Positions 4,172-24,353 of a stretch of DNA of 64,000 bases are shown here, piece after piece. The stretch comes from Gammaproteobacteria bacterium (GTDB lineage: Bacteria; Pseudomonadota; Gammaproteobacteria; Natronospirales; REEB76): contig JBAWFD010000101.1 of the NCBI GenBank assembly GCA_049591615.1, positions 22,882 to 86,881 on the forward strand, read 5' to 3'. Position 1 is the stretch's first letter, and every line of letters begins with the position of its first letter. The notes under the pieces were generated by a model. The model searched no databases, had not been told where the DNA came from, and saw only the letters and a list, made by a program, of their open reading frames with translations. The translations under genes and the position numbers were made by a program.

Positions 4172-4296
4172 CGGATACCAGCTGCAGGTATTGCAGTGTG
4201 CGAATGCAATATTTAGCAACAACACGATCCTCGTAAATGCAGAAGCATGCAAAGTGGCGGATAATATCCGTTCAAGTTAAGGAGCGCCGATTCCCA

Positions 4297-5127
4297 ATGT
4301 CGCTGAAAACAATTGCTATCTTTGTTGTCATGTGCATTAGCCTGCTGACTGAGGGCTGCGGCAGCAGCTCGAGCTCTTCCAGTTCCAGTAATACGACCGT
4401 GATCCTGCAAGTCGTGCCAGGGCCATGGAAGGGAACCTATAATCTCAACGGTAGCAGCAACATACCCGTGACCGGCACCGTGGCGGCCGGTGGTTTCGGC
4501 TATTTTGCCGACAACGACGGCAACGTGTTCCTGGTGGAGAATGTGCCCGAAGAATCACCTTTCTCCAGCATTGCTATTGCGACTGCCCCATCGGGACAGA
4601 CTTTTCCGGACGGTAACAGCGTCGATACATTCTCTGTCAATGGCAACTATGTTTCGACAGCCACCTCAACGAACATGACGGGCTCCCTTACGGGGATCGA
4701 TCCCAGCAGCTATGTATCCTATATTGGCTACGCAACTACCGGCGTGAATGGCAATTTCACTCTGGATTCCACTGTGCCCTATACGGGGACTCCGTCTATC
4801 GCCGGCTTGCAGGGCCAGTGGAATGGTTATTACACTGGCAAGACGTCTACCTCGGCAGATATCACAATCAACGCGGATGGCATTTTCAGCGGCAACGATG
4901 GCTACGGTTGCAGCATCAGCGGCAGCCTTGTGCAACAGGACCCCGGTACCAATACATACTTTGTGAACTATGTAAGCAGCGGCTCAGGTTGTCCTGGCGA
5001 CATGAATGGCTTGGCTTATGAAAGTACGATCGATGTATCAGGTGATTTTAGTGGCGCGGCCGGGACTTATTTCTATATGGGGCTATTCGGCCCGAACGTG
5101 GCGTACAGCGCGGAGTTCAAATTGTGA
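4297..5127 (+). CDS. Putative lipoprotein with a poly-Ser linker; function unknown
   Basis: MSLKTIAIFVVMCISLLTEGC followed by GSSSSSSSSSN. TAAGGAG lies upstream of the ATG at 4297, and the longer ORF from 4237 is judged an artefact. G/N/T/S/Y-rich composition like the preceding gene. Confidence 0.5.
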   Translation: MSLKTIAIFVVMCISLLTEGCGSSSSSSSSSNTTVILQVVPGPWKGTYNLNGSSNIPVTGTVAAGGFGYFADNDGNVFLVENVPEESPFSSIAIATAPSGQTFPDGNSVDTFSVNGNYVSTATSTNMTGSLTGIDPSSYVSYIGYATTGVNGNFTLDSTVPYTGTPSIAGLQGQWNGYYTGKTSTSADITINADGIFSGNDGYGCSISGSLVQQDPGTNTYFVNYVSSGSGCPGDMNGLAYESTIDVSGDFSGAAGTYFYMGLFGPNVAYSAEFKL

Positions 5128-9193: not shown

Positions 9194-9209
9194 TCAAGGT
9201 TCCCACTGC

Positions 9210-10607
9210 ATGCAGATTTCCGCCCTCCGATTTACCGCGGTGCTGTCCGCCGCCCTGCTGCTATGTCAGGCCTGTGCTTCCACACCCAAGCCCAATCCAA
9301 ACATCAGCCCGACCGCGGTCATGAACCCAGCACCCGCAGCAGCTAGTGTCACTGCCGCGGCCATCGCCAAAGCCTCCTCAACCGGGGTTCTGCTGGACCG
9401 GGTGGTGGCAGTGGTAAACGACCAGGTCATCCTTCAGAGCGAGCTGGACGTGCGGGTGGCTGCCATCACGAGGCAAATCCAGGCAGAGGGCACAACATTA
9501 CCCCCCGAAAACATACTGCGCAAACAAGTATTGGATCAAACGATTATAACCAAGCTGGAATTGCAGCAGGCCGCCATCAAAGGGATTAGCGTGAGTGACG
9601 ATGCTCTCAATCAGACCGTCAATCGTATCGCAGAACGCAACGGCATCACCTTCAATCAGCTGCCGGAAAAACTGCAGCAGTCGGGGATTAACTACGCGGA
9701 TTTCCGCCAGGAGCTGCGCAACCAGCTCATCATCCATAACCTGCAGCAGCAACTGGTGAACGACCAAATGCACATCACGCCACGCGAGATCCAGGCCCAA
9801 ATTGCGATGGATGCGGCCAACGGCAATGCCAATAGCCAATATCATATCTCGCAGATTTTGGTCACCCTGCCATTGGATCCGAGTGCCGCACAAGTTGCTG
9901 AGGCCCGCAAGAAAGCCCAGGATATCTATCAGCAGATTAAGAAGGGAGCGGATTTCGCCGCCATGGCGGTAGAGTACTCACAAGGTCAACAGGCACTCAA
10001 GGGTGGTGATCTGGGCTGGCGTAAAGGCTCCGAGCTGCCAACAATTTTTGCAGATGTCATCCGCCAGATGAAACCGGGTGACGTCACCGAACCCCTATCT
10101 AGCCCCAGCGGCTTTCATATCTTGAAACTGGATGATGTGAAACGCGCCGATAATAAAGTGCTGGTTAACCAAACACATGCCCGCCACATCCTCCTCAGAC
10201 CCAGCGCCATCATGACGGATGCACAAGCGCAAGCGAAACTGGAGGACCTGCGCAAGGAAATTCTGAATGGCGCGGATTTTGCCAAGCTGGCCGAGAAATA
10301 TTCTGAGGACCCAGGCTCCGCCAGCAATGGCGGTGATTTGGGCTGGCTGGATCCGGGTGCCACAGTACCGGAATTCCAGTCGCAGATGGACAAACTCCAG
10401 GTAGGCGAGATCAGCGAGCCATTCAAGACCCAGTTCGGCTGGCACATCGTGCAGGTACTAGGCCGACGCCAAGTAGACCAGACTCAGGAATACACACGCA
10501 ACAAGGCCTATGAGGCCATCTATGCGCGTAAATCCGAGGAAATCATTCAGAATTGGACTACTGCGCTCAGGGGGTCGGCGTATATCGAAACCTTCCTGGA
10601 TAAATAG
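9210..10607 (+). CDS. surA: Periplasmic chaperone / peptidyl-prolyl isomerase SurA
   Basis: Signal peptide, two parvulin-like segments (HISQILV..., ARHILLR...GGDLGW) and synteny. Confidence 0.9.
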   Translation: MQISALRFTAVLSAALLLCQACASTPKPNPNISPTAVMNPAPAAASVTAAAIAKASSTGVLLDRVVAVVNDQVILQSELDVRVAAITRQIQAEGTTLPPENILRKQVLDQTIITKLELQQAAIKGISVSDDALNQTVNRIAERNGITFNQLPEKLQQSGINYADFRQELRNQLIIHNLQQQLVNDQMHITPREIQAQIAMDAANGNANSQYHISQILVTLPLDPSAAQVAEARKKAQDIYQQIKKGADFAAMAVEYSQGQQALKGGDLGWRKGSELPTIFADVIRQMKPGDVTEPLSSPSGFHILKLDDVKRADNKVLVNQTHARHILLRPSAIMTDAQAQAKLEDLRKEILNGADFAKLAEKYSEDPGSASNGGDLGWLDPGATVPEFQSQMDKLQVGEISEPFKTQFGWHIVQVLGRRQVDQTQEYTRNKAYEAIYARKSEEIIQNWTTALRGSAYIETFLDK

Positions 10608-11614: not shown

Positions 11615-12405
11615 TACAACGCGACAGGTCAAGACCATTTCAAGCGCGCAAACGTTTCGGTCAGCATTTCCTGCATGATCGCAACGTCATCAACAAAATC
11701 CTGCTGGCCATCGATCCACAGCCGCACGATGTACTCGTGGAAATCGGCCCCGGCATGGGCGCCATTACCCTGCCGCTGCTGGAACGTTGCGGGGCATTGA
11801 CCGCCGTAGAACTGGATCGCGACGTGATCCCTGCGCTACAAGCAGCCGCCAAAGACAAGGGTGATTTGCGTCTCATTCAGGCCGACGCATTGAAAACCGA
11901 CTTTCATACTCTCACGCCAGAAGGATGCAAACTCCGGCTGGTGGGTAACCTGCCCTACAATATCTCCACGCCTCTGCTGTTTCACTGCCTAGACCAGATA
12001 GATGTGATTGCTGATATGCATTTCATGCTGCAGAAGGAGGTCGTGCAGCGCATGGCGGCACAGCCGGGCAGCAAGGATTATGGACGGCTCACGGTCATGC
12101 TGGCAGTGCGCTGCCGGGTGGAACCACTGCTCAACATTGGCGCGGGTGCATTTAAGCCGCCACCCAGGGTGGAATCCGCCTTCGTACGCCTGATACCCTA
12201 TGCACAAGCACCGTTCCCTTTGGGCGATACTGCACGCTTTAAAACCCTGGTCAATCAAGCTTTCAGCCGGCGGCGCAAGACCTTGCGCAATGCTCTCTTG
12301 GGTCTGGTGGACGAATCCGCCATCCGCCGAGCTGGCTTGGACCCTGCGGTACGACCCGAAACCTTGAGCGCCGCCGATTACGCGCATCTGGCTGATGGTA
12401 TATAA
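11611..12405 (+). CDS. rsmA: 16S rRNA (adenine1518/1519-N6) dimethyltransferase
   Basis: FGQHFLHD, VEIGPGMGAIT and GNLPYNISTP motifs. GTGA overlap with pdxA. Confidence 0.92.
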   Translation: MIQRDRSRPFQARKRFGQHFLHDRNVINKILLAIDPQPHDVLVEIGPGMGAITLPLLERCGALTAVELDRDVIPALQAAAKDKGDLRLIQADALKTDFHTLTPEGCKLRLVGNLPYNISTPLLFHCLDQIDVIADMHFMLQKEVVQRMAAQPGSKDYGRLTVMLAVRCRVEPLLNIGAGAFKPPPRVESAFVRLIPYAQAPFPLGDTARFKTLVNQAFSRRRKTLRNALLGLVDESAIRRAGLDPAVRPETLSAADYAHLADGI

Positions 12406-12481
12406 CTCCCGAGACTGAGATGCTTGCAATAGGCGCTGTCAGAGCTTAAAACGTCCTATCCAGAAAATCAGGAAGTGCCGT

Positions 12482-12916
12482 ATGAGCGTCTATAGCCAAG
12501 TCATGGTTGCCGTGGACCTGACCGAAGACAGTACTGCTGTGGCCCGCCGTGGGCACGCGTTGGCCACCCTTTGTGAAGCCAACCTGAGCTTTGTACATGT
12601 GGTGGAATTCATACCGGTGGATCCGGCCGGTGAAGCCCTGCTGCCGCCGCCCGTGGACTTGGAAGGTGAGCTGGTACAAGGCGCCCGCCAACGGTTGGAT
12701 GCCCTTTGCGACAACCTGGGCCTGCAAAAGACGCGCCGTCGGGTGGAAGTAGGCAACATCAAGGCCGAGATCCTGCGGGTTGCAACTGAGGAACGGGCCG
12801 ATTGTCTGGTGCTGGGCAGCCATGGGCGCCACGGTCTGGCACTACTGCTCGGCTCCACGGAGAAATCCCTGCTGCATAAGGCTCCTTGCGATGTACTGGC
12901 GGTGCGTTTGAGCTGA
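12482..12916 (+). CDS. Universal stress protein (UspA family)
   Basis: VMVAVDLTEDS...ADCLVLGSHGRHG...LLGSTEKSLLHKAPCDVLAV is the canonical Usp layout. Confidence 0.8.
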   Translation: MSVYSQVMVAVDLTEDSTAVARRGHALATLCEANLSFVHVVEFIPVDPAGEALLPPPVDLEGELVQGARQRLDALCDNLGLQKTRRRVEVGNIKAEILRVATEERADCLVLGSHGRHGLALLLGSTEKSLLHKAPCDVLAVRLS

Positions 12917-13014
12917 GCACACACCCATCTGTCATTAATTTACTGACAGCAAGCCGTTGGTTTTCGATAAAATAAGGCTTGCCAATCAAATCTCATGCCC
13001 TATCCATGATCGAG

Positions 13015-13389
13015 ATGTCCATCAATAATATCCATGTGGATGTAGAAACAGCTTTTGTGCCGGCCCAATCGGACCCTGGCCAGAACCGCTTTGTATTCGC
13101 CTATACCATCACTATCCGTAATCAGGGCTCATTACCGGCCAAACTCCTGACCCGCCACTGGCTAATCACCGATGCCAACGGCAAGGTGCAGGAGGTACGC
13201 GGTGAAGGTGTCGTGGGCGAACAACCGCATTTGAAGCCCGGAGAAGGTTTTCGTTATTCCAGTGGCGCGATACTGGAGACTCCGGTGGGAGCCATGCAGG
13301 GTGCCTACCAACTGGTGAACGACCAAGGCGAACATTTCGATGCCCCCATAGCACCCTTCCGGCTCGCGGTGCCAGGCTTACTGCACTGA
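13015..13389 (+). CDS. apaG: ApaG (DUF525) protein
   Basis: [13 protein letters not shown]...[28 protein letters not shown]. Start is the ATG at 13015 or 13006; the TTG at 12979 is unlikely. Confidence 0.85.
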
Positions 13390-14243
13390 TGGCAGTTTTC
13401 GCCGTCGGTGACGTCCAGGGCTGTTACGACGATCTGCAACGGTTGCTGGAGCGTCTTAACTTCAATCCGGAGGATGATACGCTGTGGTTAACCGGTGATC
13501 TGGTCAACCGCGGACCGCAATCTCTGGAGGTTTTGCGCTTCGTTAAGAGCCTGGGCAAAGGCGCCGTCTCGGTGCTCGGCAATCATGATCTGCACTTGCT
13601 GGCGCTTGCGGCCGGTATCGATAAACCCAAGCCCACCGACAGTCTGGATGCGGTGCTGACTGCTTCTGACCGAGATGAATTGCTGGACTGGCTGCGCCAC
13701 CGGCCATTGTTACACCAGGACCAAGCCTTGGGTTACACGCTGATCCATGCGGGACTGCCGCCCCAATGGGATTCTGCGATTGCGCAAGCCTGTGCGAACG
13801 AACTTGAGTACGTGCTGCGTGGCCATGATTACCTGGAATTCTTCAGGCACATGTATGGTAACCGTCCAAATCGCTGGTCTGATGCATTGCAAGGTATGGA
13901 ACGGTTGCGCTTCATCGTGAACTGCTTCACGCGCTTGCGTTACTGCACGCCGCAAGGCGCACTGGATCTGGCATCCAAAGGTGCCCCCGGAACACAACCT
14001 CAGGGCTACCTGCCCTGGTTCATGGTTCCGGAGCGCGCCAGTGCCGAATTGCACATCCTCTTCGGTCACTGGTCAGCCTTAGGCGAGATCAAGGGTCATA
14101 ATGTCTATCCGTTGGATACCGGCTGTGTCTGGGGTGGAAAACTATCCGCCCTGCGGCTCGATGGTGACGACAGTGGTAGCTGGTATTGCGTGGACTGTCC
14201 CGGCGCCCGGGAGCAGGCTGAAACGCAGTACTTTAGAATCTGA
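13389..14243 (+). CDS. apaH: Bis(5'-nucleosyl)-tetraphosphatase (symmetrical)
   Basis: AVGDVQGCYDDL, GDLVNRGP and GNHD metallophosphatase motifs. 1-nt overlap with apaG. Confidence 0.9.
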   Translation: MAVFAVGDVQGCYDDLQRLLERLNFNPEDDTLWLTGDLVNRGPQSLEVLRFVKSLGKGAVSVLGNHDLHLLALAAGIDKPKPTDSLDAVLTASDRDELLDWLRHRPLLHQDQALGYTLIHAGLPPQWDSAIAQACANELEYVLRGHDYLEFFRHMYGNRPNRWSDALQGMERLRFIVNCFTRLRYCTPQGALDLASKGAPGTQPQGYLPWFMVPERASAELHILFGHWSALGEIKGHNVYPLDTGCVWGGKLSALRLDGDDSGSWYCVDCPGAREQAETQYFRI

Positions 14244-14245
14244 TT

Positions 14246-15055
14246 ATGGCCAGCAGTACCTCCATCATGAATCTGCGCCTCGACGGCAAACAGGCACTGG
14301 TCTGCGGTGCGAGTCAGGGCATCGGTGCAGCTGCCGGTCGCGCCCTGGCGGAACTGGGCGTCAACGTCACACTGGTGGCGCGTTCGCGAGACAAGCTGGA
14401 AGCAATCCTGGCGCAACTCACCACCGGCAGCGGCCAGCGGCATGACTATTTCATTGCCGATTTCGACCAGCCGGAGACGCTCAAGACGGCGCTTGGCCTG
14501 TGGCTGAAGAATCACGCGCAGGCACATATCCTCATCAATAATTCCGGCGGCCCACCCGGCGGATCCGCCCATGCCGCGAGTATCGAAGAATATCAAAAAG
14601 CCTTCATGCGTTTCATGCTCTGCGGTCAGATGCTAGTGCAAGCGGTGCTGCCCGGTATGCAAAAATCAGGCTATGGTCGCATCATCAATGTGATTTCTAC
14701 ATCGGTGAAGGAACCTATCAAGGGACTGGGTGTGTCGAACACCATCCGCTGGGCAGTGGCAGGTTGGGCCAAGACCCTGGCCAGCGAGCTCGGACCTCAC
14801 GGCATCACGGTCAACAACATCCTGCCCGGCTTCACCCGTACACCCCGAATCGCCAGCTTGTTCAAGGCGCGTGCGGAAAAAGAACAACGCACCGTCTCTG
14901 ATATCGAAAAGGAAGCCATGTCACTGATCCCGCTGAGGCGGTTCGCAGAGCCTGAGGAGATCGCCGCCGCCATCGCCTTCCTGGCCTCACCTGCCGCGAG
15001 CTATATCAATGGCATCAACCTGCCGGTGGATGGTGGTCGTCTCCAAAGCCTCTAG
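14246..15055 (+). CDS. Short-chain dehydrogenase/reductase family protein with an atypical active-site region
   Basis: ALVCGASQGIGAA Rossmann motif, NNSGG and PG...T. By eye the YxxxK position reads S-N-T-I-R. Starts 2 nt after the apaH stop and ends 1 nt before the next gene. Confidence 0.7.
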   Translation: MASSTSIMNLRLDGKQALVCGASQGIGAAAGRALAELGVNVTLVARSRDKLEAILAQLTTGSGQRHDYFIADFDQPETLKTALGLWLKNHAQAHILINNSGGPPGGSAHAASIEEYQKAFMRFMLCGQMLVQAVLPGMQKSGYGRIINVISTSVKEPIKGLGVSNTIRWAVAGWAKTLASELGPHGITVNNILPGFTRTPRIASLFKARAEKEQRTVSDIEKEAMSLIPLRRFAEPEEIAAAIAFLASPAASYINGINLPVDGGRLQSL

Positions 15056-15056
15056 C

Positions 15057-16502
15057 ATGCAGAAACTTGCCAACTATATAGATGGTAAAACCCCCCCAGC
15101 GGCTTCGGGCGGCTGGCTTGAAGATTTTGAACCAGCCACCGGCCAGGTGTATGCGCATTGCCCTGATTCCGAAAAGGCCGATATAGACAATGCTGTCGCC
15201 GCTGCCCAGCATACCTTCCCGGCCTGGTCAGCCACGCCTGCGGCCGAGCGCGGCGAGAGGCTGCACAGACTCGCGGCGTTAATCGAACGCGATCTCGAAA
15301 AGCTGTCGCATGCTGAGAGCAAGGACTCTGGCAAACCCATCGCCCTCGCCCGCAGCCTGGATATCCCCCGGGCCGTAACCAACCTGCGTTTCTTTGCCGC
15401 CGCCGCCAGCCAGTTCGCCAGCGAATCGCATGCCATGGAATCCGGCGCCATCAACTATACGCTGCGCCCACCCCTGGGCGTGGTCGGCTGCATCTCGCCC
15501 TGGAACCTGCCGCTGTACCTGTTCACCTGGAAGATTGCTCCGGCACTCGCGGCCGGTAACTGCGTAGTGGCGAAACCTTCTGAACTTACGCCTATGACCG
15601 CCTATCTGTTCTCGGAACTCTGCATCGAAGCCGATCTGCCGCCCGGCGTGCTCAATGTTGTGCACGGCCTCGGGTCAAAAGCCGGTACGGCCCTGGTTGA
15701 ACATCCGCAGGTGAAGGCTATCTCCTTCACTGGTGGCACCCGGACCGGCGCCGACATCGCCGCTCGTGCGGGACCCAAGTTCAAGAAGTTGTCACTGGAA
15801 CTGGGCGGCAAGAACCCGACCCTGGTGTTCGCCGACTGTGATTTCGAAACCACGGTGTCGGAAACTGTGCGAGCAGCGTTCTCCAATCAGGGTGAGATCT
15901 GCCTGTGCGGCTCACGCATACTTATCGAACGCAGCCTGTATGCGCGCTTTCGCGACGCATTCGTGGCGCGCGCCCGTAGCTTGCGTCAGGGCGATCCAAA
16001 AGATGAGCGTACTGAACAAGGCGCGTTGATCTCCGCGGCACATCTGCAAAAAGTCATGGGATACGTCGAGCTCGCCCAGAAAGAGGGTGGAAAGATCCTG
16101 TGCGGAGGTCGGCGTGCAAAACTCGGCGGCCGCTGCGCCGACGGTTGGTTCGTGGAGCCGACAGTCATCGAAAACCTGGCGTCAGATTGCCGCACTAACC
16201 AGGAAGAAATCTTCGGCCCGGTGGTCACGCTGATTCCTTTCGACACCGAAGACCAAGCCGTTGCTTACGCCAATGGGACGCCTTACGGCCTCGCTGCCTC
16301 TCTCTGGAGCCGCGATATAGCGCGCTGCCACCGCGTAGCCGCGAGGCTGGAAGCTGGTCTCATCTGGATCAACTGCTGGATGCTGCGCGACCTGCGCGTG
16401 CCTATGGGCGGCGTGAAGCAGTCCGGTACCGGTCGTGAAGGCGGCTGGGAAGCCATGCGCTTCTTCACAGAAGCGCGCAACATCTGCATCAAGTATGAAT
16501 AA
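15057..16502 (+). CDS. NAD-dependent aldehyde dehydrogenase, probably 2-aminomuconate-6-semialdehyde dehydrogenase
   Basis: ALDH motifs ELGGKNP and EICLCGSR (catalytic Cys) and EEIFGPV. Context between the RidA, HAAO and ACMSD genes. Confidence 0.75.
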   Translation: MQKLANYIDGKTPPAASGGWLEDFEPATGQVYAHCPDSEKADIDNAVAAAQHTFPAWSATPAAERGERLHRLAALIERDLEKLSHAESKDSGKPIALARSLDIPRAVTNLRFFAAAASQFASESHAMESGAINYTLRPPLGVVGCISPWNLPLYLFTWKIAPALAAGNCVVAKPSELTPMTAYLFSELCIEADLPPGVLNVVHGLGSKAGTALVEHPQVKAISFTGGTRTGADIAARAGPKFKKLSLELGGKNPTLVFADCDFETTVSETVRAAFSNQGEICLCGSRILIERSLYARFRDAFVARARSLRQGDPKDERTEQGALISAAHLQKVMGYVELAQKEGGKILCGGRRAKLGGRCADGWFVEPTVIENLASDCRTNQEEIFGPVVTLIPFDTEDQAVAYANGTPYGLAASLWSRDIARCHRVAARLEAGLIWINCWMLRDLRVPMGGVKQSGTGREGGWEAMRFFTEARNICIKYE

Positions 16503-16917
16503 GCGCAGCAAGATAGCATCCACCAACGCACCAGAGCCGGTCGGGCTTTATCCGCATGCGCGGCGCGTCGGTGATCTGCTGTTCCTCTCCGGTGTAGGCC
16601 CGCGCAAGCGCGGCAGCAAAGATATCCCCGGTGTGAAGCTCGACGCCCATGGAAATGTCCTCAGTTATGAAATCGAGGCCCAGTGCCATTCGGTGTTCGA
16701 GAATGTGCGCCTGATACTGGAAGATGCCGGTTCTGGCTGGGACCGGCTGGTGGACGTGTGCGTATTCCTCACCGACATGCGGCGCGACTTCGTCACCTAC
16801 AACCGAATCTACGCCGAATACTTCAAAGATAACCAGCCCTGTCGCACCACGGTGGAAGTGACAGCGCTGCCGACGCCCATCGCCATCGAACTCAAATGCA
16901 TTGCCACGATTGACTGA
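16495..16917 (+). CDS. RidA/YjgF-family deaminase, putative 2-aminomuconate deaminase
   Basis: [25 protein letters not shown]...CRTTVEV RidA signature. 8-nt overlap with the ALDH gene. Confidence 0.7.
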
Positions 16918-16934
16918 GATTTGGGGAGGACGCC

Positions 16935-17456
16935 ATGAGCGCCATGAACGTACTCAATTTCCATAAATGGATCGACGACAACCGTCATCTGCTAAAGCCG
17001 CCAGTCGGCAACAAATGCGTCTATGACGGCGACTTCATCGTCATGGTGGTGGGTGGGCCCAATTCCCGCAAGGACTATCACTACGACGAAGGTCCGGAAT
17101 TCTTTCATCAGATCGAAGGTGAGATGCTGCTGAAGACCATGCAGGGTGGCAGGCCGGTCGATTACCCTATCCGCGCCGGCGAGATATTCCTGCTGCCGCC
17201 ACGCGTGCCGCATTCACCACAGCGTTTCGCCAACTCCGTTGGCCTCGTAATCGAGCGCAAGCGTCTGCCTGACGAACAGGATGGGCTGCTGTGGTTCTGC
17301 GAACGATGCCACAGCAAACTCTATGAGGAATACTTCAGACTGCTGAACATCGAGAAGGATTTCCCGCCGGTGTTTGACCGGTTCTTCGGCAACCTGGAGT
17401 ATCGCACCTGCAAAAAATGCGGTGCCGTGATGGATGCGCCGGACAAGAAAAAATAA
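16935..17456 (+). CDS. nbaC: 3-hydroxyanthranilate 3,4-dioxygenase
   Basis: Cupin core [18 protein letters not shown]...[16 protein letters not shown] and a C-terminal CERC...CKKC rubredoxin-like site. GGGGAGGA SD upstream. Confidence 0.9.
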
Positions 17457-17459
17457 CAC

Positions 17460-18470
17460 ATGCTGAAGATAGACATCCACACCCACATCCTGCCCAGCAA
17501 CTGGCCGGACCTGAAGGAAAAATACGGCTACGGCGGTTTCGTGCAGCTGCATCACCACGGTCCAGGTTGCGCACGCCTGCTGAAAGACGGTGAATTTTTC
17601 CGGGAGGTGCAAGCCAATTGCTGGGATGGCGAGGTCCGGCTGCGCGAATGCGCTGCCCATGGAGTGGGCGTGCAGGTATTGTCCACCGTACCGGTGATGT
17701 TCAGCTATTGGGCAAAGCCCAAAGATACCTTGGACCTGTCCCGCCTGTTGAACGATCACATCGCCGGCCTGGTGGCAGAACACCCGCGCCGCTTCGTCGG
17801 CCTCGGCACACTGCCACTGCAATCACCGGAGCTGGCCATCCGCGAACTGCAACGTTGCATCCAAGAGCTGGGATTTCCTGGTGTACAGATCGGCACGCAT
17901 GTGAACGGCATGAACCTGGACGATCCGCAGCTGTTTCCGGTGTTCGAAGCCGCCCAGGAACTGGGTGCTGCAGTCTTCGTGCATCCCTGGGACATGCTCG
18001 GCAAGGAGCGTATGCGCAAATACTGGACACCGTGGCTGGTGGCCATGCCGGCGGAGACCTCATTGGCCGTGTGCTCGATGATCTTCGGTGGCATATTCGA
18101 ACGTCTGCCCAAACTGCGTGTGTGTTTCGCCCATGGGGGTGGTGCATTTCCTGCCACCCTGGGGCGCATCGAGCATGGCTTCCAGGTGCGTCCCGATTTG
18201 TGCGCCGTGGACAACAGCATCAATCCCGCAAATTATCTCGGCAAGTTTTATGTGGATTCATTGGTGCATCACGCGGGCATGTTGAACTATATGATCGATC
18301 TCCTGGGTGCGAACAGCATCGCACTCGGCAGCGACTATCCATTTCCCCTGGGTGAACATATGCCGGGCCAGCTCATCGAATCCATGCCGCTTGACACCGA
18401 GACCAAACAGCGGCTTTTGCATGGTACCGCTCTGGAGTGGTTGCGGCTCGATAAGGCGCAGTACCTGTGA
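17460..18470 (+). CDS. nbaD: 2-amino-3-carboxymuconate-6-semialdehyde decarboxylase (amidohydrolase family)
   Basis: IDIHTHILP...FVHPWDM...FAHGGGAFP...[10 protein letters not shown]. Confidence 0.85.
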
Positions 18471-19243
18471 ATATCCTGCGTTTTGAAATCGGCAACCATC
18501 ATTGCAGCGTGGACACGGCGCGTGGTGTATCGCTGGCGATACCCCTGCAGTTCGACGGTCCACAGCCCAACTTTTTCGCGGCACCCACCGCCAGTGCCGA
18601 AGCGCTGCAGACGGATGACTTCATCGGCGATACCCATCAGGGTGGCAGCTGCAATGTCAGCCATTACCACCTGGTCCCCCACTGCAATGGCACGCACACG
18701 GAATGCATCGGTCACGTGGTGGACGATGCCGCCACCGTGACCGAGCAGCTGCGTCAATCACTGCTGCCGGCCACCCTGGTCACGCTTGCGCCGCGTCATA
18801 ACCTCATCGATGCGGCGCTGATCAAGATGAGCCTGCAGCATCATCCGATGCCCGAACTGCATACGGCCTTCATCATCCGCACCCTGCCCAACACCCGGGA
18901 AAAGCTCTCACACCGGTACGATGTTGTGCCGCCGGCGTATCTGGCTGAAGAAGCCGTAGGCTTGCTGGTGGCTGCCGGCGTCGAACACCTGCTGGTGGAT
19001 CTGCCATCCCTCGATCCCATGCACGACGAGGGACGGCTGGCGGCACACCGCGCTTTCTGGGGCTTGCCCGCCAGCAGCCGACGCCTAGCCGATGCCAAGC
19101 GGCCGCGCGCCACCATCACCGAGATGATCTATGTGCCCGATCAGGTCAAGGACGGCTACTACCTGCTGGACCTGCAGATCCCGGCGTTCATGAGTGACGC
19201 TGCACCCAGCCGACCTGTAATCTATCCGGTAGAAATGAAATGA
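18467..19243 (+). CDS. Cyclase-family protein, putative kynurenine formamidase with a variant metal motif
   Basis: [12 protein letters not shown] resembles the cyclase/KynB HxGTHxDxPxH motif with D->E and P->I. ATGA-type overlaps with both neighbours. Confidence 0.5.
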
Positions 19244-20520
19244 TCTTCCGCACCGATGCCAAGTTCGCCGCTGAGATGGACCGGTCTGACCCGTTGGCCG
19301 ATTATCGCTACAAATTTCACATTCCAACCTACGAGGATGGCGAAGAAATATATCTATGCGGCAACTCTCTCGGGTTACAGCCGAAAGCCACCGAACGTTA
19401 CCTACATGAGGAACTGGAGGACTGGGCGCGTCTGGGTGTGAAGGGCCATTTCGCCGGACGCCGCCCATGGATGCCTTATCACGAACTGTTCAGCGAGCGC
19501 AGCGCGCGCCTGGTGGGCGCCGAACCGCTGGAAGTCATCAACATGAATTCACTCACCGTCAACCTGCACCTGATGCTGGTGAGTTTCTACCGGCCTACGG
19601 CAGCACGCAACCGCATACTCATCGAGCGCAGCGCCTTTCCCTCCGATCGATACGCGGTGGCATCCCAGATCCGTTTCCACGGCTTCGACCCGGACACCAG
19701 CCTGGTGGAACTCGCATCTGCCGGAGCCCTGCGGACACTGGATATAGATGAGGTGGAGGCCCTCATCCGTGCCGAAGGTGAGCGTCTTGCGCTGGTGATG
19801 CTACCGGGGGTGCAGTACGCCAGCGGCCAGGTATTTGATATGGCACGCATCACGCGCGCGGCCCATGCGGTGGGCGCGGTAGCCGGTTTCGACCTGGCGC
19901 ATGCCGCCGGCAACTTGCCGCTGCAGCTCCACGATTGGGACGTGGATTTTGCCGTATGGTGCAACTACAAATATATGAATGCCGGTCCTGGTGCGGTAGC
20001 CGGCTGCTTCGTGCACGCGCGCCACGCCCGCGCGCTTGAGCTGCCGCGCTTTGCCGGCTGGTGGGGTCACGACAAGGCTACGCGCTTCCGTATGGGTCCG
20101 GAGTTCGTGCCCATGCCCGGCGCGGAAGGCTGGCAGATCAGCAACCCACCAATCCTGGCGCTGGCACCCTTGCTGGCGTCCTTGGAGATCTTCGATGACG
20201 TAGGCATGCCTAAACTGCGGGAGAAATCCCTGCAGCTCAGCGGTTATCTTGAATTCCTGCTGGACCAGCGACTGCCAGAAGCAGTTGAGATACTCACGCC
20301 GCGTAATCCTACCGAACGCGGTTGCCAGCTATCGCTGCGGATCTCAGGCAGCCACAGTCGTGCCAGGGAGATCTTTACGCGCCTGGAGCAGGCCGGCGTG
20401 ACCGCCGACTGGCGCGAACCGGATGTCCTGCGTATTGCTCCGGTGCCGCTCTACAACACTTATGCCGACGTGTACCGCTTCGTGGACATCCTTGATAAGG
20501 TGGTCAGTGACGCGTTATAA
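19240..20520 (+). CDS. kynU: Kynureninase
   Basis: IYLCGNSLGLQPK, DLAHAAGN and the WCNYKYMNAGPG PLP-lysine region. Confidence 0.9.
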   Translation: MIFRTDAKFAAEMDRSDPLADYRYKFHIPTYEDGEEIYLCGNSLGLQPKATERYLHEELEDWARLGVKGHFAGRRPWMPYHELFSERSARLVGAEPLEVINMNSLTVNLHLMLVSFYRPTAARNRILIERSAFPSDRYAVASQIRFHGFDPDTSLVELASAGALRTLDIDEVEALIRAEGERLALVMLPGVQYASGQVFDMARITRAAHAVGAVAGFDLAHAAGNLPLQLHDWDVDFAVWCNYKYMNAGPGAVAGCFVHARHARALELPRFAGWWGHDKATRFRMGPEFVPMPGAEGWQISNPPILALAPLLASLEIFDDVGMPKLREKSLQLSGYLEFLLDQRLPEAVEILTPRNPTERGCQLSLRISGSHSRAREIFTRLEQAGVTADWREPDVLRIAPVPLYNTYADVYRFVDILDKVVSDAL

Positions 20521-20572
20521 AACGCGTACATTAACCCCGCACAAAGATAATTAAAAAATCGCTTTTGTCATT

Positions 20573-21934
20573 ATGCATACTGATAAAGAGATTACATTGA
20601 TTGGCGCCGGCCTGGCCGGCAGCCTGCTGTCCATCTTCCTGGCGCGCCGTGGTCTCCAAGTGACGGTCTACGAACGCCAGCCCGACATGCGGCATCACGA
20701 CATCGCTGCCGGCCGATCCATCAATCTGGCCCTGGCCCAGCGTGGCATCCGGCCACTCAAAGAGGCTGGCATATTCGAACAGGTCTCGAAGCTCCTGATC
20801 CCCATGCGCGGACGCATGCTGCACGATGAGCAGGGCCACACGACACTGACACCTTACGGCCGTAAATCCACCGAAGTTATTCATTCGATCTCGCGGCCTG
20901 GTCTGAACAGATTGCTCATGAATGCCGCGCAGGCCGCGGGTGCCAACATACTGTTCCAGCAGCGTTGCGAGGACATGGATTTCGAAAATTCTACACTGAC
21001 ACTCAGTGATCAATCCGGCAAACAATATTCCATCAATGCCCACAGCGTGATCGCCACGGATGGCGGCGGATCGACGCTACGCCAGGCCCTGGTGAAACGG
21101 CTTGGCGTCAACGTGGTGGAAGATATCCTGCCCCACGGTTACAAGGAACTCGCCATCAACGCTGGTGCAGACGGCCACCATCGTTTGGATCGCGAAGCCT
21201 TGCACATCTGGCCACGCGGCGGTTACATGCTCATCGCCCTGCCGAACCTGGACGGCAGCTTCACGGTGACCTTGTTTTTGCCCATGCAAGGCGACCCCAG
21301 TTTTGCTTCCCTGGATAAGCCCAGGGCCGTGCTGAAATTCTTTGAGAAGAATTTCCCCGACGCTCTGCAGCTATTACCCAATCTGGAAAATGAATTCTTT
21401 GCACATCCCATCGGATTCATGGGCACGGTGCATTGCGCGCGCTGGCATGCGGATGGCAAGCTTCTGTTGCTGGGAGATGCCGCCCACGCCATCGTGCCTT
21501 TCCACGGTCAGGGCATGAACTGCGCCTTCGAGGATTGCCTGCTCCTGGACCGATGTCTGGATAAATACGGCGATGATTGGCAAAGCATATTCAGCGAGTT
21601 CGAGACCTTGCGTCGCCCGGATACCGAAGCCATCGCCGAGATGGCACTGGAAAACTACGTGGAGATGCGTGCTATGGTACGCAATTCCAGGTTCCAGCTG
21701 CAAAAGCAACTTGGCTTCCTGCTGGAAGAGCGTCACCCAGGCATATTCGTGCCACGCTACTCCATGGTGATGTTCCATCACTTACCTTATTCCGAGGCCA
21801 GGCGCCGCGGTGCGATTCAGCAACGGATACTTGACGATCTGACCGCTGATACTACGTCCCTCGAGCAGGTGGATTTTGAGCGCGCCGATGCGCTGATCGA
21901 TGAAACTCTCGGAACCAGCAGGATAGAGGCATGA
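20573..21934 (+). CDS. kmo: Kynurenine 3-monooxygenase (FAD)
   Basis: ITLIGAGLAGSLLSIFLARRG dinucleotide fold. LLGDAAHAIVPFHGQGMNCAFED FAD motif. Confidence 0.88.
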   Translation: MHTDKEITLIGAGLAGSLLSIFLARRGLQVTVYERQPDMRHHDIAAGRSINLALAQRGIRPLKEAGIFEQVSKLLIPMRGRMLHDEQGHTTLTPYGRKSTEVIHSISRPGLNRLLMNAAQAAGANILFQQRCEDMDFENSTLTLSDQSGKQYSINAHSVIATDGGGSTLRQALVKRLGVNVVEDILPHGYKELAINAGADGHHRLDREALHIWPRGGYMLIALPNLDGSFTVTLFLPMQGDPSFASLDKPRAVLKFFEKNFPDALQLLPNLENEFFAHPIGFMGTVHCARWHADGKLLLLGDAAHAIVPFHGQGMNCAFEDCLLLDRCLDKYGDDWQSIFSEFETLRRPDTEAIAEMALENYVEMRAMVRNSRFQLQKQLGFLLEERHPGIFVPRYSMVMFHHLPYSEARRRGAIQQRILDDLTADTTSLEQVDFERADALIDETLGTSRIEA

Positions 21935-22983
21935 ACACTCATCCTTTCCTTCAGGGCCTGGGCAGCAACCCCGATTTCCTACTGCAGAATTTTGACCTGG
22001 CAAATCGTCGTGCACTGGTGGTGCGGGTCAACGAGAGTGTTTACCGGGAAGCATCCTTCCTGGATGACCGCATATTAAATCCCCAGACGGAAGGATTCTG
22101 GCTGCCGCTGGAATCTGTGTTGCAGCAGACGGGCCAGCTTACACCCGCTAAGCCGCACTATATTTTCCATGTTGGGCATTGCGGTTCCACACTCATTTCG
22201 CGTCTGCTCGCGGAACTGCCTCATTGTCTACCGTTGCGGGAACCGATGTCGCTTTTAACTCTTGCAGTTGCCAGACGCGAACTGGGCCGTGTTTCTTCCT
22301 GGTTGACGACTGCGCAATGGAACCAGCTGCTACAGACTGCCATCAGCTCGCTCGCCAGGACTTACCGGAAATCTGATAAATCCCTGATTAAGGTCACCAG
22401 TAATGCAGGCAACCTGCTGGAATCCCTACTACCAGTATCGGAAGGGGACTCGCATATCTTGATGATGTATATCAGTCTGGAATCCTATCTGGCGGTTATG
22501 TTGCGGACTCAGGATCTTCGCGCCAGCATCCATGCTTTTTCACCTGTATGGATGACAGATTTCTGCCGTCTGACGGGAAGAACTGATCTGTGTTTAGCTG
22601 AACTCGGCGATGCACAACAAATCACTCTTAAATGGCTTGTTATCTTGATGCTGTTCGTGCGGGCGGGAACATCATCACAGTCTGAGTCACAATTGCTCAA
22701 CTTCGACAAATTCCTCATGAATCCTCTGGAGCGATTCATGCAGATAACCGGATTATTTAAACTTGAATGCGACATGGAAAAAGCTCGACAGCTGCTTGAT
22801 GGGCCTATGATGCAGAGATATTCCAAGATTCCAACGCAGAGCTTCAATCACACGCAACGCAATAGCGAACTGCGGGACGCGCGTCAGAAATTCCAGCCTG
22901 AGATTAATGCTGGCCTCAAGTGGGCAGAGACGCTATGTCGCGAAATACCCGCACTTGCGTCTGTGGCCGCTTATCTCGGTTAA
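21931..22983 (+). CDS. Hypothetical protein, sulfotransferase-fold-like
   Basis: HYIFHVGHCGSTLISRLLAELPHCLPLREP resembles the PAPS 5'-phosphosulfate-binding loop (G-x-x-R/x-S-G-S-T-L-L...EP). ATGA overlap with kmo. GC is visibly lower (~40-47% in sampled lines). Confidence 0.4.
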   Translation: MNTHPFLQGLGSNPDFLLQNFDLANRRALVVRVNESVYREASFLDDRILNPQTEGFWLPLESVLQQTGQLTPAKPHYIFHVGHCGSTLISRLLAELPHCLPLREPMSLLTLAVARRELGRVSSWLTTAQWNQLLQTAISSLARTYRKSDKSLIKVTSNAGNLLESLLPVSEGDSHILMMYISLESYLAVMLRTQDLRASIHAFSPVWMTDFCRLTGRTDLCLAELGDAQQITLKWLVILMLFVRAGTSSQSESQLLNFDKFLMNPLERFMQITGLFKLECDMEKARQLLDGPMMQRYSKIPTQSFNHTQRNSELRDARQKFQPEINAGLKWAETLCREIPALASVAAYLG

Positions 22984-23004
22984 ATACTGCTTGTATCGCC
23001 AAGC

Positions 23005-23505
23005 TTAGGCCACATTGCGAGGTAGCTTGCGCTCCAGCGTGATGAAGGAATACGGGTGGGCATTAAGCATGTCAGCTGCATGATCCTCGCGTGCTATCTC
23101 ACGCCAGCTTGAGGTATCAATCGCCGGGAAGAAGGTATCTGCATCGAAATGCGCGTGCACACGCGTCAGGTATATCCGCTGTGTCCGCGGCAAGGCCTCG
23201 TGGTAGATCTCGCCGCCGCCGATGACCATACTTTCTGCAGACCCAGCGGCCAGCACTAAAGCATCTGTGAATGACTGCGTGACTTCGCAGCCAGGAGGGC
23301 TGTAGCCAGGTCTACGGGAAACCACGATGTTGCGTCGCTCTGGCAAGGGCTTGCCGATGGCCTCGAACGTCTTGCGCCCCATGATGACCGGTTTGCCAAG
23401 TGTTATTGATTTGAAATGCTTGAGATCAGCCGGCAGATGCCATGGCATGCGGCCGGCCTTGCCGATCTCGTTGTTTTCACCAGCGGCAACAACCAGAGAA
23501 AGCAT
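23005..23505 (-). CDS. folA: Dihydrofolate reductase
   Basis: IGKAGRMPWHLPADLKHFKSITLGKPVIMGRKTFEAIG. Confidence 0.9.
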   Translation of the reverse strand: MLSLVVAAGENNEIGKAGRMPWHLPADLKHFKSITLGKPVIMGRKTFEAIGKPLPERRNIVVSRRPGYSPPGCEVTQSFTDALVLAAGSAESMVIGGGEIYHEALPRTQRIYLTRVHAHFDADTFFPAIDTSSWREIAREDHAADMLNAHPYSFITLERKLPRNVA

Positions 23506-23558
23506 TAATCCGACTTGGCACCGATCGGTGCTGTATTAATAGCGAACATGCAATGCGT

Positions 23559-24353
23559 TCAAACAGCGATCTGCGCTTTGATGGCGGAGTGGCTCTGGTA
23601 ACCGGTAATCTCGAAATCTTCATACTGATAATCGAACAGGCTCGGCGGTTTGCGCTTGATATGCAGGCTCGGTAATCGATGCGGTTCGCGTGATAATTGT
23701 TCATCCACCTGCTGCAGATGATTCAGATACAGATGGCAGTCGCCCCCGGTCCAGATGAACTCTCCCGGCTTGAGGCCAGTCTGTTGCGCGAGCATATGCG
23801 TGAGCAGTGCGTAGGAACAGATATTGAATGGCACGCCTAGGAAGATATCGGCGCTGCGTTGGTAGAGCTGGCAGGATAACCGGCCTTCGGCTACATAGAA
23901 CTGGAAGAACGCATGACAGGGTTGCAACGCCATCTCCTGCAGATCGGCCACGTTCCAGGCGCTGACGATGATGCGGCGCGAATCGGGGGTGTTACGCAGT
24001 TGCTCGAGCACCTTCTTTACCTGGTCGATATGGCGCCCATCCGGCGCCGGCCAGGAACGCCATTGATAACCGTACACCGGCCCGAGATCGCCATTCTCGT
24101 CTGCCCATTCATCCCAGATGCTGACGCCATGCTCATGCAGATATCGGGTATTGGTATCGCCACGCAAGAACCACAGGAGTTCATGGATGATGGAGCGGAA
24201 ATGCAGTTTCTTGGTGGTGACCGCCGGAAATCCTGCATTCAGGTCGAACCGCATCTGGTAACCGAATACCGAAAGCGTACCGGTGCCGGTACGGTCACTC
24301 TTGCGCGTACCATGGTCACGCACATGCCGCATGAGTTCCAGGTACTGTCGCAT
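23559..24353 (-). CDS. thyA: Thymidylate synthase
   Basis: [11 protein letters not shown]...DRTGTGT...[12 protein letters not shown]...[13 protein letters not shown]. Start at the internal ATG (24353), 264 aa. TGATG 1-nt overlap with lgt. Confidence 0.95.

Follow-up and report, generated by a model that had tools for sequence, protein, structure and literature searches.

The closest described bacterial systems are the nba cluster of Pseudomonas fluorescens KU-7, the amn cluster of Pseudomonas sp. AP-3, and the tryptophan cluster of Burkholderia cenocepacia J2315, referred to here as the classical clusters. Operons of the nba type include genes encoding 4-oxalocrotonate decarboxylase (4-OD), a hydratase, an aldolase, and acetaldehyde dehydrogenase, together with a LysR regulator. 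The glutarate branch of animals proceeds through kynurenine 3-monooxygenase (KMO), kynureninase (KYNU), 3-hydroxyanthranilate 3,4-dioxygenase (HAAO), ACMS decarboxylase (ACMSD), and ALDH8A1 to an ASPDH-family reductase (ASPDH/AMR), with no dedicated deaminase. Ascomycete (Aspergillus) 3-hydroxyanthranilate clusters contain the dioxygenase (3-HAO), ACMSD, 2-aminomuconate-6-semialdehyde dehydrogenase (AMSDH), and a bacterial-like deaminase but no 4-OD set, KMO, or KYNU; a syntenic short-chain dehydrogenase/reductase (SDR) has been reported in some of them (PMC7842363). Outside the 4-oxalocrotonate route, the step past 2-aminomuconate is still open (bioRxiv 10.64898/2026.06.05.730449), and a literature search found no description of an enzyme that reduces 2-oxohex-3-enedioate.

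The DNA analyzed here, a 64-kb window from an uncultured soil gammaproteobacterium related to Natronospirales, contains nine codirectional, tightly packed open reading frames on the plus strand at positions 14246 to 22983. The region is a genuine kynurenine (tryptophan-breakdown) cluster, and the bacterial type to which it belongs is widespread and animal-like. Upstream, it adjoins the housekeeping genes surA-pdxA-rsmA-apaGH, the upstream core genes apaG-apaH lying at 12979..14243 (plus strand; PF04379 and PF00149), and its downstream end is marked by a convergent folA gene (23005..23505, minus strand; PF00186, 204 bits) whose position is kept in relatives. No dedicated regulator is encoded within the cluster. 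The apaH stop codon occupies 14241-14243 and the ATG of the first cluster gene, encoding an SDR, begins 2 nt beyond it at 14246, a junction that is also present in relatives and in Natronospira. Each of the remaining junctions was likewise read directly and bears out the nine-gene operon, with its gaps and overlaps, of the preliminary description. The SDR stop codon (15053-15055) is separated by 1 nt from the ATG of the aldehyde dehydrogenase (ALDH) gene at 15057, which overlaps the RidA gene by 8 nt at 16495-16502 (ATGAATAA). A 17-nt gap containing a GGAGG ribosome-binding site precedes the 3-HAO gene, and a 3-nt gap separates the latter from the ACMSD gene. The ACMSD and cyclase genes overlap in GTGA (18467-18470), the cyclase and KYNU genes in ATGA (19240-19243), and the KMO gene and the ninth gene (gene 9) in ATGA (21931-21934), whereas KYNU and KMO are separated by 52 AT-rich nt. 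The gene order was found again in about 36 related genomes and is therefore not a product of chance.

Seven of the nine genes could be assigned securely or plausibly, on the basis of sequence matches, to AMSDH, a RidA-type deaminase, 3-HAO, ACMSD, a KynB-like cyclase, KYNU, and KMO; profile and solved-structure matches agree with the identities previously named. The AMSDH (15057..16502, plus strand; PF00171, 561 bits) has AMSDHs as its best solved relatives (4u3w at 455 bits, with 7bzv and 4i1w in the range of 433 to 455 bits) and scores 547 bits against TIGR03216, under the 693-bit cutoff of that profile. The RidA/YjgF-family protein (16495..16917, plus strand; PF01042) is probably a 2-aminomuconate deaminase, with the 2-aminomuconate deaminase 6izh as its best solved relative (E value, 4.6e-23) and generic RidA proteins scoring only slightly lower. 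The 3-HAO (16935..17456, plus strand; PF06052, 217 bits) exceeds the cutoffs of both NF009763 (254 bits) and TIGR03037 (238 bits). The ACMSD (17460..18470, plus strand; PF04909) matches human ACMSD (2wm1) with 507 bits and 63% identity, compared with 232 bits for the P. fluorescens enzyme (2hbv). Similarly, the kynureninase (19240..20520, plus strand), which appears to be of the animal-like, 3-hydroxykynureninase type, scores 464 bits against TIGR01814, over the cutoff, and 394 bits against the human enzyme (3e9k/2hzp) versus 185 bits against that of P. fluorescens (1qz9). By these scores, both enzymes are nearer to their human than to their Pseudomonas counterparts. The KMO (20573..21934, plus strand; PF01494) matches P. 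fluorescens KMO (5fn0) with 397 bits and an E value of 7.5e-118.

The earlier claim that every step from N-formylkynurenine is covered depends, for the formamidase, on a very divergent cyclase-family protein (18467..19243, plus strand), the weakest of the step assignments. This putative kynurenine formamidase scores 43.7 bits against PF04199 (cutoff, 23.1 bits) and 36.5 bits against the arylformamidase equivalog TIGR03035, under its 223-bit cutoff. Its sole solved relatives, matched only weakly, are the KynB structures 4co9 and 4cz1 (E value, 5e-4 with the single sequence and 7e-5 with a profile). Compared with the KynB metal motif HxGTHxDxPxH, the cyclase carries a variant with one extra residue and a D-to-E replacement that is invariant in six orthologs. 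Three related clusters lack the cyclase gene.

Clustered genes for 3-HAO, ACMSD, AMSDH, and a RidA-type 2-aminomuconate deaminase are common to the classical clusters and this operon, and the ALDH (43 to 47% identity) and the deaminase belong to the same bacterial families as those of nba-type clusters, for which the Polaromonas JS666 plasmid NC_007949.1 and a Cupriavidus pauculus plasmid were examined. The ACMSD, in contrast, is only 38 to 39% identical to nba-type ACMSD, far from its identity to the human enzyme, and the operon contains an atypical SDR where nba-type operons have the 4-OD, hydratase, aldolase, acetaldehyde dehydrogenase, and LysR genes. The order of reactions is that of the animal glutarate branch, which the operon also resembles in its animal-like ACMSD and kynureninase, in the lack of a 4-oxalocrotonate branch, and in the NAD(P)H-dependent step that would be expected past 2-aminomuconate. 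It differs from the animal pathway in the bacterial type of its AMSDH and in containing a RidA-type deaminase and an SDR with no ASPDH homolog. The Aspergillus clusters have the same core of 3-HAO, ACMSD, AMSDH, and deaminase, and the fungal SDR can be likened to this one by description only.

The window had been described as lacking tryptophan 2,3-dioxygenase (TDO), 4-OD, the hydratase, and the aldolase, and two kinds of search agree. Open reading frames of at least about 120 amino acids in the window gave no Pfam match to any of the four, nor was there a Pfam match to FAA_hydrolase or HMGL in the window, and tblastn of the window with TDO and MhpD/MhpF/MhpE queries returned nothing below an E value of 0.1. 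Across 165 loci with SDR-type or gene-9-type clusters, no homolog of MhpD, MhpF, or MhpE was found at an E value of ≤0.01. As a positive control, the same Mhp queries strongly matched the classical nba-type clusters, which contain no ortholog of the SDR. The lack of TDO is local and does not extend to the operon type: TDO is the first gene of the same operon type in other phyla and lies directly upstream of the SDR gene in seven loci.

The SDR gene (14246..15055, plus strand; PF13561/PF00106) likely starts at 14267 rather than at the ATG at 14246, giving a protein of 262 amino acids, as in its homologs. The protein is 31% identical to Escherichia coli FabG and resembles the FabG/ketoreductase type in its Rossmann fold, GxxxGxG and NNxG motifs, and the Ser of the catalytic triad. 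Unlike that type, it has S157 and R161 at the positions of FabG Y151 and K155, as do all of the aligned orthologs (11/11). Of the hallmarks of classical SDRs, the Gly-rich dinucleotide motif and NNAG are thus found and Ser-Tyr-Lys (YxxxK) is not. The protein retains GxSQGIG (here GASQGIG), NNSGG, and A-R after beta-2; because the dinucleotide-binding motifs and the conserved Arg after beta-2 are kept, the sequence suggests NADP(H) as the cofactor. The motif ISTSVK[EQ]PxxGLGVSNT[IV]R is invariant in orthologs from four phyla. The best solved relatives (5va8, 5vps, 5idx, 2z1n, and 1o5i) are structural-genomics proteins with no named substrate. The SDR also resembles the conserved-domain group "BKR-like SDR-like," a group described as having no perfect catalytic tetrad. 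Invariant Ser and Arg in place of the carbonyl-reducing Tyr and Lys would fit the reduction of something other than a carbonyl, such as a conjugated C=C bond, although the loss of the catalytic Tyr could alternatively reflect a nonredox role.

Orthologs of the SDR with 50 to 71% identity adjoin kynurenine genes in contigs of the Calditrichota, Planctomycetota, and Gammaproteobacteria and in Bacteroidota-like contigs; those of a Calditrichaeota MAG, Mariniblastus, a Bacteroidota-like contig, Natronospira bacteriovora, and strain AB-CW1 are 57 to 60% identical and belong to the same module. The association occurs in several gene orders. The Calditrichaeota MAG has the order TDO-SDR-ALDH-RidA-HAO-ACMSD-Cyc-..-KYNU-..-KMO, in Mariniblastus SDR-ALDH-RidA is divergent from Cyc-KYNU-KMO, and where clusters are split, the SDR remains with the lower module (HAO, ACMSD, ALDH, and RidA). 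Of 80 metagenome loci, 52 had at least one kynurenine gene near the SDR, as did 5 of the 6 named genomes inspected. Of the 28 loci in which the SDR was flanked by 4 kb or more in each direction, 19 had a kynurenine gene nearby and 9 had none, as was also the case in Aureispira. Unbiased clustering of neighbors gave ALDH (31), ACMSD (26), HAO (24), RidA (23), KYNU (16), and KMO (11) as the six commonest families. Of the 19 full-length clusters of the close lineage, 4 (L003, L015, L017, and L020) lack the SDR. A catechol-type O-methyltransferase (PF01596) recurs adjoining the operon in 11 other loci.

The preliminary description left the fate of the C6 dicarboxylate unexplained by the genes present, which overlooks the SDR, a conserved operon member across phyla and the obvious candidate for what follows. 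The best explanation of the whole locus, with a probability of roughly 0.5, is that an operon for kynurenine catabolism was inserted between apaH and folA and that its SDR carries the carbon to 2-oxoadipate. By homology, the divergent KynB-like cyclase would convert N-formylkynurenine to kynurenine, KMO would form 3-hydroxykynurenine, and the animal-type kynureninase would release 3-hydroxyanthranilate and alanine. 3-HAO would then produce ACMS, the animal-type ACMSD would yield 2-aminomuconate semialdehyde, AMSDH would oxidize this to 2-aminomuconate, and the RidA-type deaminase would generate 2-oxohex-3-enedioate and ammonia. The SDR is proposed to reduce the conjugated C=C bond of 2-oxohex-3-enedioate with NADPH, giving 2-oxoadipate; alternatively, it may reduce 2-aminomuconate first, with the RidA protein hydrolyzing the resulting enamine or imine. 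Housekeeping enzymes encoded at other loci would then feed the carbon into the 2-oxoadipate/glutaryl-CoA route; TDO would likewise be encoded elsewhere in the genome, and the SDR route would replace the 4-OD, hydratase, and aldolase branch of the nba, amn, and Burkholderia clusters. A role for the SDR in the pathway is a candidate assignment that comes from genomic association and elimination. The specific proposal of a previously undescribed NADPH-dependent 2-oxohex-3-enedioate reductase, or of a 2-aminomuconate reductase that acts together with the RidA protein, is a tentative reading that falls somewhat short of an even chance.

KMO, kynureninase, and 3-HAO also form the core of the de novo NAD (quinolinate) pathway of the Xanthomonas/Cytophaga kind. 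It is extremely unlikely that the cluster serves that pathway, because the accompanying ACMSD, AMSDH, and deaminase divert ACMS from quinolinate, the window includes nadA (43322-44428), and no nadC is clustered; the cluster is thus catabolic, as the preliminary description had held. The proposed role of the SDR must be weighed against a rather unlikely alternative in which the operon ends at 2-aminomuconate or 2-oxohex-3-enedioate, 4-OD, hydratase, and aldolase encoded elsewhere complete the pathway, and the SDR is auxiliary or unrelated, for example, detoxifying a side product such as a reactive aldehyde, quinone, or imine. The known bacterial route does run via 4-oxalocrotonate, the gene absences in the window cover only 64 kb of the genome, and the SDR is both missing from some related clusters and sometimes found without kynurenine neighbors. 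However, classical clusters hold the lower-pathway genes inside the same operon, and those genes are missing from all of the 165 loci searched. In addition, the neighbors of the SDR are almost exclusively kynurenine genes, and its conservation over four phyla with an invariant active-site region argues for one specific substrate. Counting against the proposed role, too, is that genes for 2-oxoadipate dehydrogenase or glutaryl-CoA dehydrogenase do not cluster with the SDR in the neighbor survey. The lack of clustered genes for downstream carbon assimilation would favor a role in nitrogen scavenging or detoxification instead of complete carbon catabolism: the cell would recover alanine and ammonia, the C6 dicarboxylate would be excreted or would decay spontaneously, and the SDR would lie off the main line. 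Spontaneous deamination of 2-aminomuconate (half-life of about 160 min at pH 7.6) and the attachment of an operon without its own regulator to housekeeping genes point the same way, but neither a dedicated deaminase nor a conserved SDR would be needed were the product discarded, and the operon is intact over many lineages, making this reading very unlikely.

Gene 9 (21931..22983, plus strand), previously listed as unknown, has no Pfam or NCBIfam match. Its AF2 model (mean pLDDT, 92.7) confidently predicts a sulfotransferase fold of an uncharacterized family: the 50 best Foldseek PDB matches are all PAPS sulfotransferases (best E value, 2.4e-5), with TM-scores of only 0.4 to 0.6 and 8 to 14% identity. 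The overall fold is common to tyrosylprotein sulfotransferases (TPSTs), the curacin ST domain, Stf0/Stf1, and Sulfotransfer_3. Invariant residues comprise HCGSTL (83-88), R103-E104, and K154/T156/S157/N161. The P-loop-like HCGSTL would form the 5'-phosphosulfate loop at the position of RSGTTL/PKSGTT, with His replacing the usual sulfate-contacting Lys/Arg; K154/T156/S157 are candidates for the second (3'-phosphate-binding) motif, and Glu104 and Lys154 may correspond to the catalytic Glu and Lys of TPST. Whichever main-line explanation applies, the gene 9 product could O-sulfate 3-hydroxykynurenine, the phenol made by KMO, or 3-hydroxyanthranilate, buffering a redox-toxic intermediate or making a secondary product. 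Besides the fold itself, this is favored by the 4-nt overlap with KMO, which many relatives with as little as 46% identity retain, by distant homologs that adjoin hydroxylases (2OG-Fe(II) oxygenases), and by the O-methyltransferase beside other loci, which hints at o-aminophenol conjugation. The distant homologs also adjoin TPR-sulfotransferases. Such a role is nevertheless quite unlikely given the His in the phosphosulfate loop and the distribution of the gene. Gene 9 follows KMO in one uncultured, vertically related lineage only, at one chromosomal site, and operons of this type in other phyla lack it; in two relatives (L033 and L035), a GGDEF-EAL gene on the opposite strand lies between KMO and gene 9, which still adjoins folA. 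Gene 9 is probably a lineage-specific accessory and not a core gene; it would be cotranscribed yet dispensable for the pathway.

If the SDR does carry the carbon to 2-oxoadipate, bacteria of at least four phyla would possess a direct route from tryptophan to this compound. The route would represent a third independent solution past 2-aminomuconate, beside the 4-oxalocrotonate branch and the metazoan ASPDH/AMR, and the SDR would provide a lead for the corresponding step in fungi.

Nine plus-strand genes occupy positions 14246-22983 and encode, in order, an atypical short-chain dehydrogenase/reductase (SDR), an aldehyde dehydrogenase (ALDH), a RidA-type protein, 3-hydroxyanthranilate dioxygenase (HAO), ACMSD, a divergent cyclase-family protein (Cyc), kynureninase (KYNU), KMO, and a last open reading frame referred to here as gene 9 (21931-22983). 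The coordinates of the preliminary description were confirmed by direct reading of all junctions, and the ORF calls run on the plus strand without interruption from surA (9210) through 22983. The apaH stop codon (14241-14243) lies just ahead of the SDR start codon (ATG, 14246); the methionine at 14267 is the annotated SDR start in most database homologues. A 1-nt gap separates SDR from ALDH, ALDH and RidA overlap by 8 nt (ATGAATAA), and 4-nt overlaps join ACMSD to Cyc, Cyc to KYNU, and KMO to gene 9. The RidA-HAO and HAO-ACMSD gaps are short, and that between KYNU and KMO is 52 nt and AT rich. No terminator-like site was seen between apaH and the cluster or between gene 9 and the convergent folA in a scan of 12300-23700, in which promoter and terminator matches were rarer than in shuffled sequence and so uninformative; no Rfam family matched 12000-24000 at E <= 0.1.

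The cluster fills the gap between apaH and folA within a conserved core neighborhood, with surA-pdxA-rsmA-usp-apaG-apaH on one flank and folA-thyA-lgt on the other. At the stop codon of the kynureninase gene (TAA, 20518-20520), in the AT-rich stretch toward KMO, the sequence forms a perfect small palindrome, ACGCGT-TATAAA-ACGCGT (20509-20526). The closest relative retains part of it and more distant ones do not, the aligned spacer shows no conservation across relatives, and the hairpin is probably insignificant. Further upstream, two plus-strand ORFs (2453-4171, 572 amino acids; 4237-5127, 296 amino acids) have no significant Pfam match, only a weak Ig-like one; they are flanked by lipA and the lptD-surA genes, where the GC content is lower (about 0.51).

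The kynurenine pathway enzymes are assigned with unequal strength. KMO scores 397 bits against Pseudomonas fluorescens KMO, kynureninase exceeds the TIGR01814 cutoff, HAO exceeds the cutoffs of two equivalog models, and ACMSD scores 507 bits against a solved ACMSD. The best solved relatives of the ALDH are 2-aminomuconate-6-semialdehyde dehydrogenases (AMSDH), and that of the RidA protein is the 2-aminomuconate deaminase 6izh, with a modest lead over generic RidA proteins. Judged by its scores, the putative kynurenine formamidase Cyc is the weakest assignment in the pathway: it gives 43.7 bits with Pfam Cyclase and 36 bits with the arylformamidase equivalog, against a cutoff of 223 bits, its metal motif is a variant form, and its sole match among solved structures is KynB (E of about 1e-4). 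ACMSD (17460-18470) shares 63% identity with human ACMSD across its whole length (507 bits, versus 232 bits for P. fluorescens NbaD), and kynureninase (19240-20520) scores 394 bits against human KYNU and 185 bits against the Pseudomonas enzyme. Both are thus closer to the human enzymes, which makes the upper and middle pathway animal-like in type. Bacterial and animal proteins are seldom this similar, a point relevant to the debate on where the eukaryotic kynurenine pathway came from.

The presence of ACMSD, AMSDH, and the deaminase in the cluster, together with nadA (quinolinate synthase; 43322-44428, minus strand) elsewhere in the window, supports a catabolic rather than an NAD-synthetic role, as first proposed; given nadA, this organism can make NAD by way of aspartate. 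The nadA region is of lower GC content (about 0.49 to 0.52 at 42 to 48 kb) and adjoins a GH18 glycosyl hydrolase gene (45306-46640). The preliminary description had also reported that tryptophan 2,3-dioxygenase (TDO) and the 4-oxalocrotonate lower pathway were missing locally, and this was borne out: Pfam scans of the window's called ORFs found no TDO, no decarboxylase or hydratase of the FAA-hydrolase family, and no aldolase, and tblastn of the window with TDO from a related operon and with Escherichia coli MhpD, MhpF, and MhpE, the lower-pathway queries, gave zero matches. Homologs of these three were likewise found in none of 165 fetched loci. The queries were validated on positive controls, classical nba-type clusters on plasmids, where in-operon matches were 51% (hydratase), 30 to 32% (4-oxalocrotonate decarboxylase), about 68% (acetaldehyde dehydrogenase), and about 80% (aldolase) identical to them. 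Unlike those clusters, the present operon type combines an animal-like ACMSD and kynureninase with the lack of a 4-oxalocrotonate branch, and the classical plasmid clusters contain no ortholog of the atypical SDR.

A hypothetical protein (P0001) from an NCBI MAG named "Gammaproteobacteria bacterium" matches the gene 9 product at 100% identity, and an exact look-up of that product in the assembly index returned no record. Copies at least 42% identical to the gene 9 of the window occur in about 36 species-level genomes, in the order apaG-apaH-(SDR)-ALDH-RidA-HAO-ACMSD-(Cyc)-KYNU-KMO-gene 9, followed by convergent folA and thyA. Among 19 full-length clusters of the close lineage, the SDR is absent from 4 and the cyclase gene from 3. 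Natronospira bacteriovora and strain AB-CW1 carry apaH-SDR-ALDH-RidA-HAO(-ACMSD-Cyc) at the same chromosomal site, which places the MAG near Natronospirales. In one relative (L003:11694-19012), a PIN/PhdYeFM toxin-antitoxin pair sits between folA and thyA together with a gene for a tRNA_bind-domain protein, a piece of thyA, and a 1,715-amino-acid nSTAND1 NTPase, an arrangement that looks like a small defense or mobile island beside the cluster. In two others (L033:6833-9757, minus strand, and its equivalent in L035), KMO and gene 9 are separated by a 974-amino-acid dCache-HAMP-GAF-GGDEF-EAL signaling gene in the opposite orientation.

Gene 9, initially listed as unknown, had no family match, and sequence and profile searches of the PDB gave only subthreshold sulfotransferase matches, so that a fold search was needed. 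An AlphaFold model built with 34 homologs is confident (pLDDT of 92.7), and all 50 of its best PDB matches are PAPS sulfotransferases; Pfam Sulfotransfer_3 is found in some homologs. Invariant features include HCGSTL at the phosphosulfate-loop position (His for Lys/Arg), R103-E104, and K154/T156/S157/N161. Gene 9 follows KMO only at a single chromosomal site, in genomes of one vertically related lineage, and the same operon in other phyla lacks it. The model, fold matches, and restricted distribution thus point to a lineage-specific accessory of sulfotransferase fold, a feature missed at first, whose link to the pathway is weak. Below 40% identity, the homologs of Dokdonella, Lysobacter, Planctomycetota, and Maricaulis have no kynurenine neighbors; the genes next to them encode 2OG-Fe(II) oxygenases (PF13640), TPR-Sulfotransfer_3 proteins, and TonB-dependent receptors. 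This hydroxylase/sulfotransferase neighborhood, seen in other Lysobacterales as well, recurs in loci L037 to L085 (e.g., L040:31-672, L037:11075-11740, L041:7857-10109, and L045:1983-4940) and is undescribed. Given this recurrent pairing, gene 9 may, with modest probability, sulfate 3-hydroxykynurenine or 3-hydroxyanthranilate. Gene 9 does not replace TDO, since its fold is that of a sulfotransferase rather than a heme dioxygenase and it is absent from the TDO-carrying operons of other phyla. Nor is a TDO hidden in the inserts of relatives' clusters, which consist of the GGDEF-EAL gene, a DUF559 endonuclease-like gene, and small proteins with no Pfam match or only a subthreshold thioredoxin one.

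The first gene of the cluster (14246-15055) has a far wider distribution. Aligned with E. coli FabG, the SDR retains the nucleotide-binding motifs and has Ser in place of the catalytic Tyr and Arg in place of Lys; it is predicted to bind a nicotinamide cofactor, probably NADPH in view of a conserved Arg after beta-2, and the alignment indicates that the residues used for carbonyl reduction are missing. The motif ISTSVK[EQ]PxxGLGVSNT[IV]R is invariant in orthologs from four phyla that are otherwise 57 to 60% identical. Look-ups in named genomes placed five of six distant orthologs within kynurenine modules: a Calditrichaeota MAG (TDO-SDR-ALDH-RidA-HAO-ACMSD-Cyc-DUF3179-DUF3179-KYNU-x-KMO), a Mariniblastus MAG (SDR-ALDH-RidA, divergent from Cyc-KYNU-KMO), a Bacteroidota-like contig, Natronospira, and AB-CW1. 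TDO, though locally absent, is therefore a member of the same operon type elsewhere, which had been overlooked. A metagenome scan with the SDR alignment yielded 80 loci (50 to 71% identity) in at least four distinct gene orders; one or more kynurenine genes flank the SDR in 52 of these, and in 19 of the 28 with at least 4 kb on each side. In an unbiased clustering of everything within 8 kb of the SDR, six neighbor families came out on top, namely ALDH (31 loci), ACMSD (26), HAO (24), RidA (23), KYNU (16), and KMO (11), and in split clusters the SDR stays with the lower module. By these sequence comparisons, the SDR is a conserved cross-phylum signature of this operon type.

Several other features accompany SDR loci. 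A catechol-type O-methyltransferase gene (PF01596) adjoins the SDR/ACMSD module in 11 loci (L143, L144 [e.g., L144:1986-2627], and nine further metagenome loci); it could conjugate phenols alongside the pathway, a role also conceivable for gene 9, or its recurrence may be mere local synteny in one marine lineage. The Calditrichaeota operon additionally holds the two DUF3179 genes and a Polyketide_cyc2 (SRPBCC) gene (extras from other phyla are at L089:6764-7696 and 9105-9677 and L088:10671-11876), and in Mariniblastus an Amidohydro_3 gene follows RidA at the place expected for ACMSD. One metagenomic SDR homolog (P0122) has 430 amino acids versus about 262 to 269, a possible fusion or miscalled gene.

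For decades, the route by which carbon passes from 2-aminomuconate to 2-oxoadipate and glutaryl-CoA has been a gap in the description of tryptophan catabolism. The preliminary description considered the fate of the C6 dicarboxylate unexplained by the genes present; it overlooked the cross-phylum conservation of the SDR, which likely supplies this step. Every other conversion between N-formylkynurenine and 2-oxohex-3-enedioate has an assigned enzyme and the SDR is the one conserved gene left, so that the most economical reading is a conjugate reduction in which the SDR would convert 2-oxohex-3-enedioate to 2-oxoadipate. Alternatively, the SDR might reduce 2-aminomuconate, after which RidA would hydrolyze the enamine or imine; either route would feed the 2-oxoadipate/glutaryl-CoA path. 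Against a role for the SDR in this step stand its loss from those 4 close clusters, the missing kynurenine neighbors at some orthologs, and the lack of clustered 2-oxoadipate-consuming genes, the genome sequence read being the window plus about 10 kb flanking each fetched gene.

In the literature searched, in which subscription journals were sparsely represented, neither a reductase acting on 2-oxohex-3-enedioate nor a bacterial one acting on 2-aminomuconate was described, and no SDR was reported from bacterial kynurenine operons. According to a recent preprint, what becomes of 2-aminomuconate had been unresolved except for the 4-oxalocrotonate route of bacteria; the preprint assigns the metazoan step to ASPDH with 2-aminohex-3-enedioate as the product, and reports that fungi use a bacterial-like deaminase, leaving the next step open (bioRxiv 10.64898/2026.06.05.730449, June 2026). 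An SDR is also syntenic with 3-hydroxyanthranilate clusters in Aspergillus (PMC7842363).

The operon type is widespread in bacteria, and the SDR is a single, small, soluble candidate protein for its lower module. The prediction is specific and cheap to test, as the substrates are already made enzymatically and there is at least one cultured carrier, Natronospira bacteriovora. If it is true, an orphan reaction would gain an enzyme, pathway reconstructions would be corrected for many soil and marine genomes, and SDRs without the catalytic Tyr would acquire a new chemistry.
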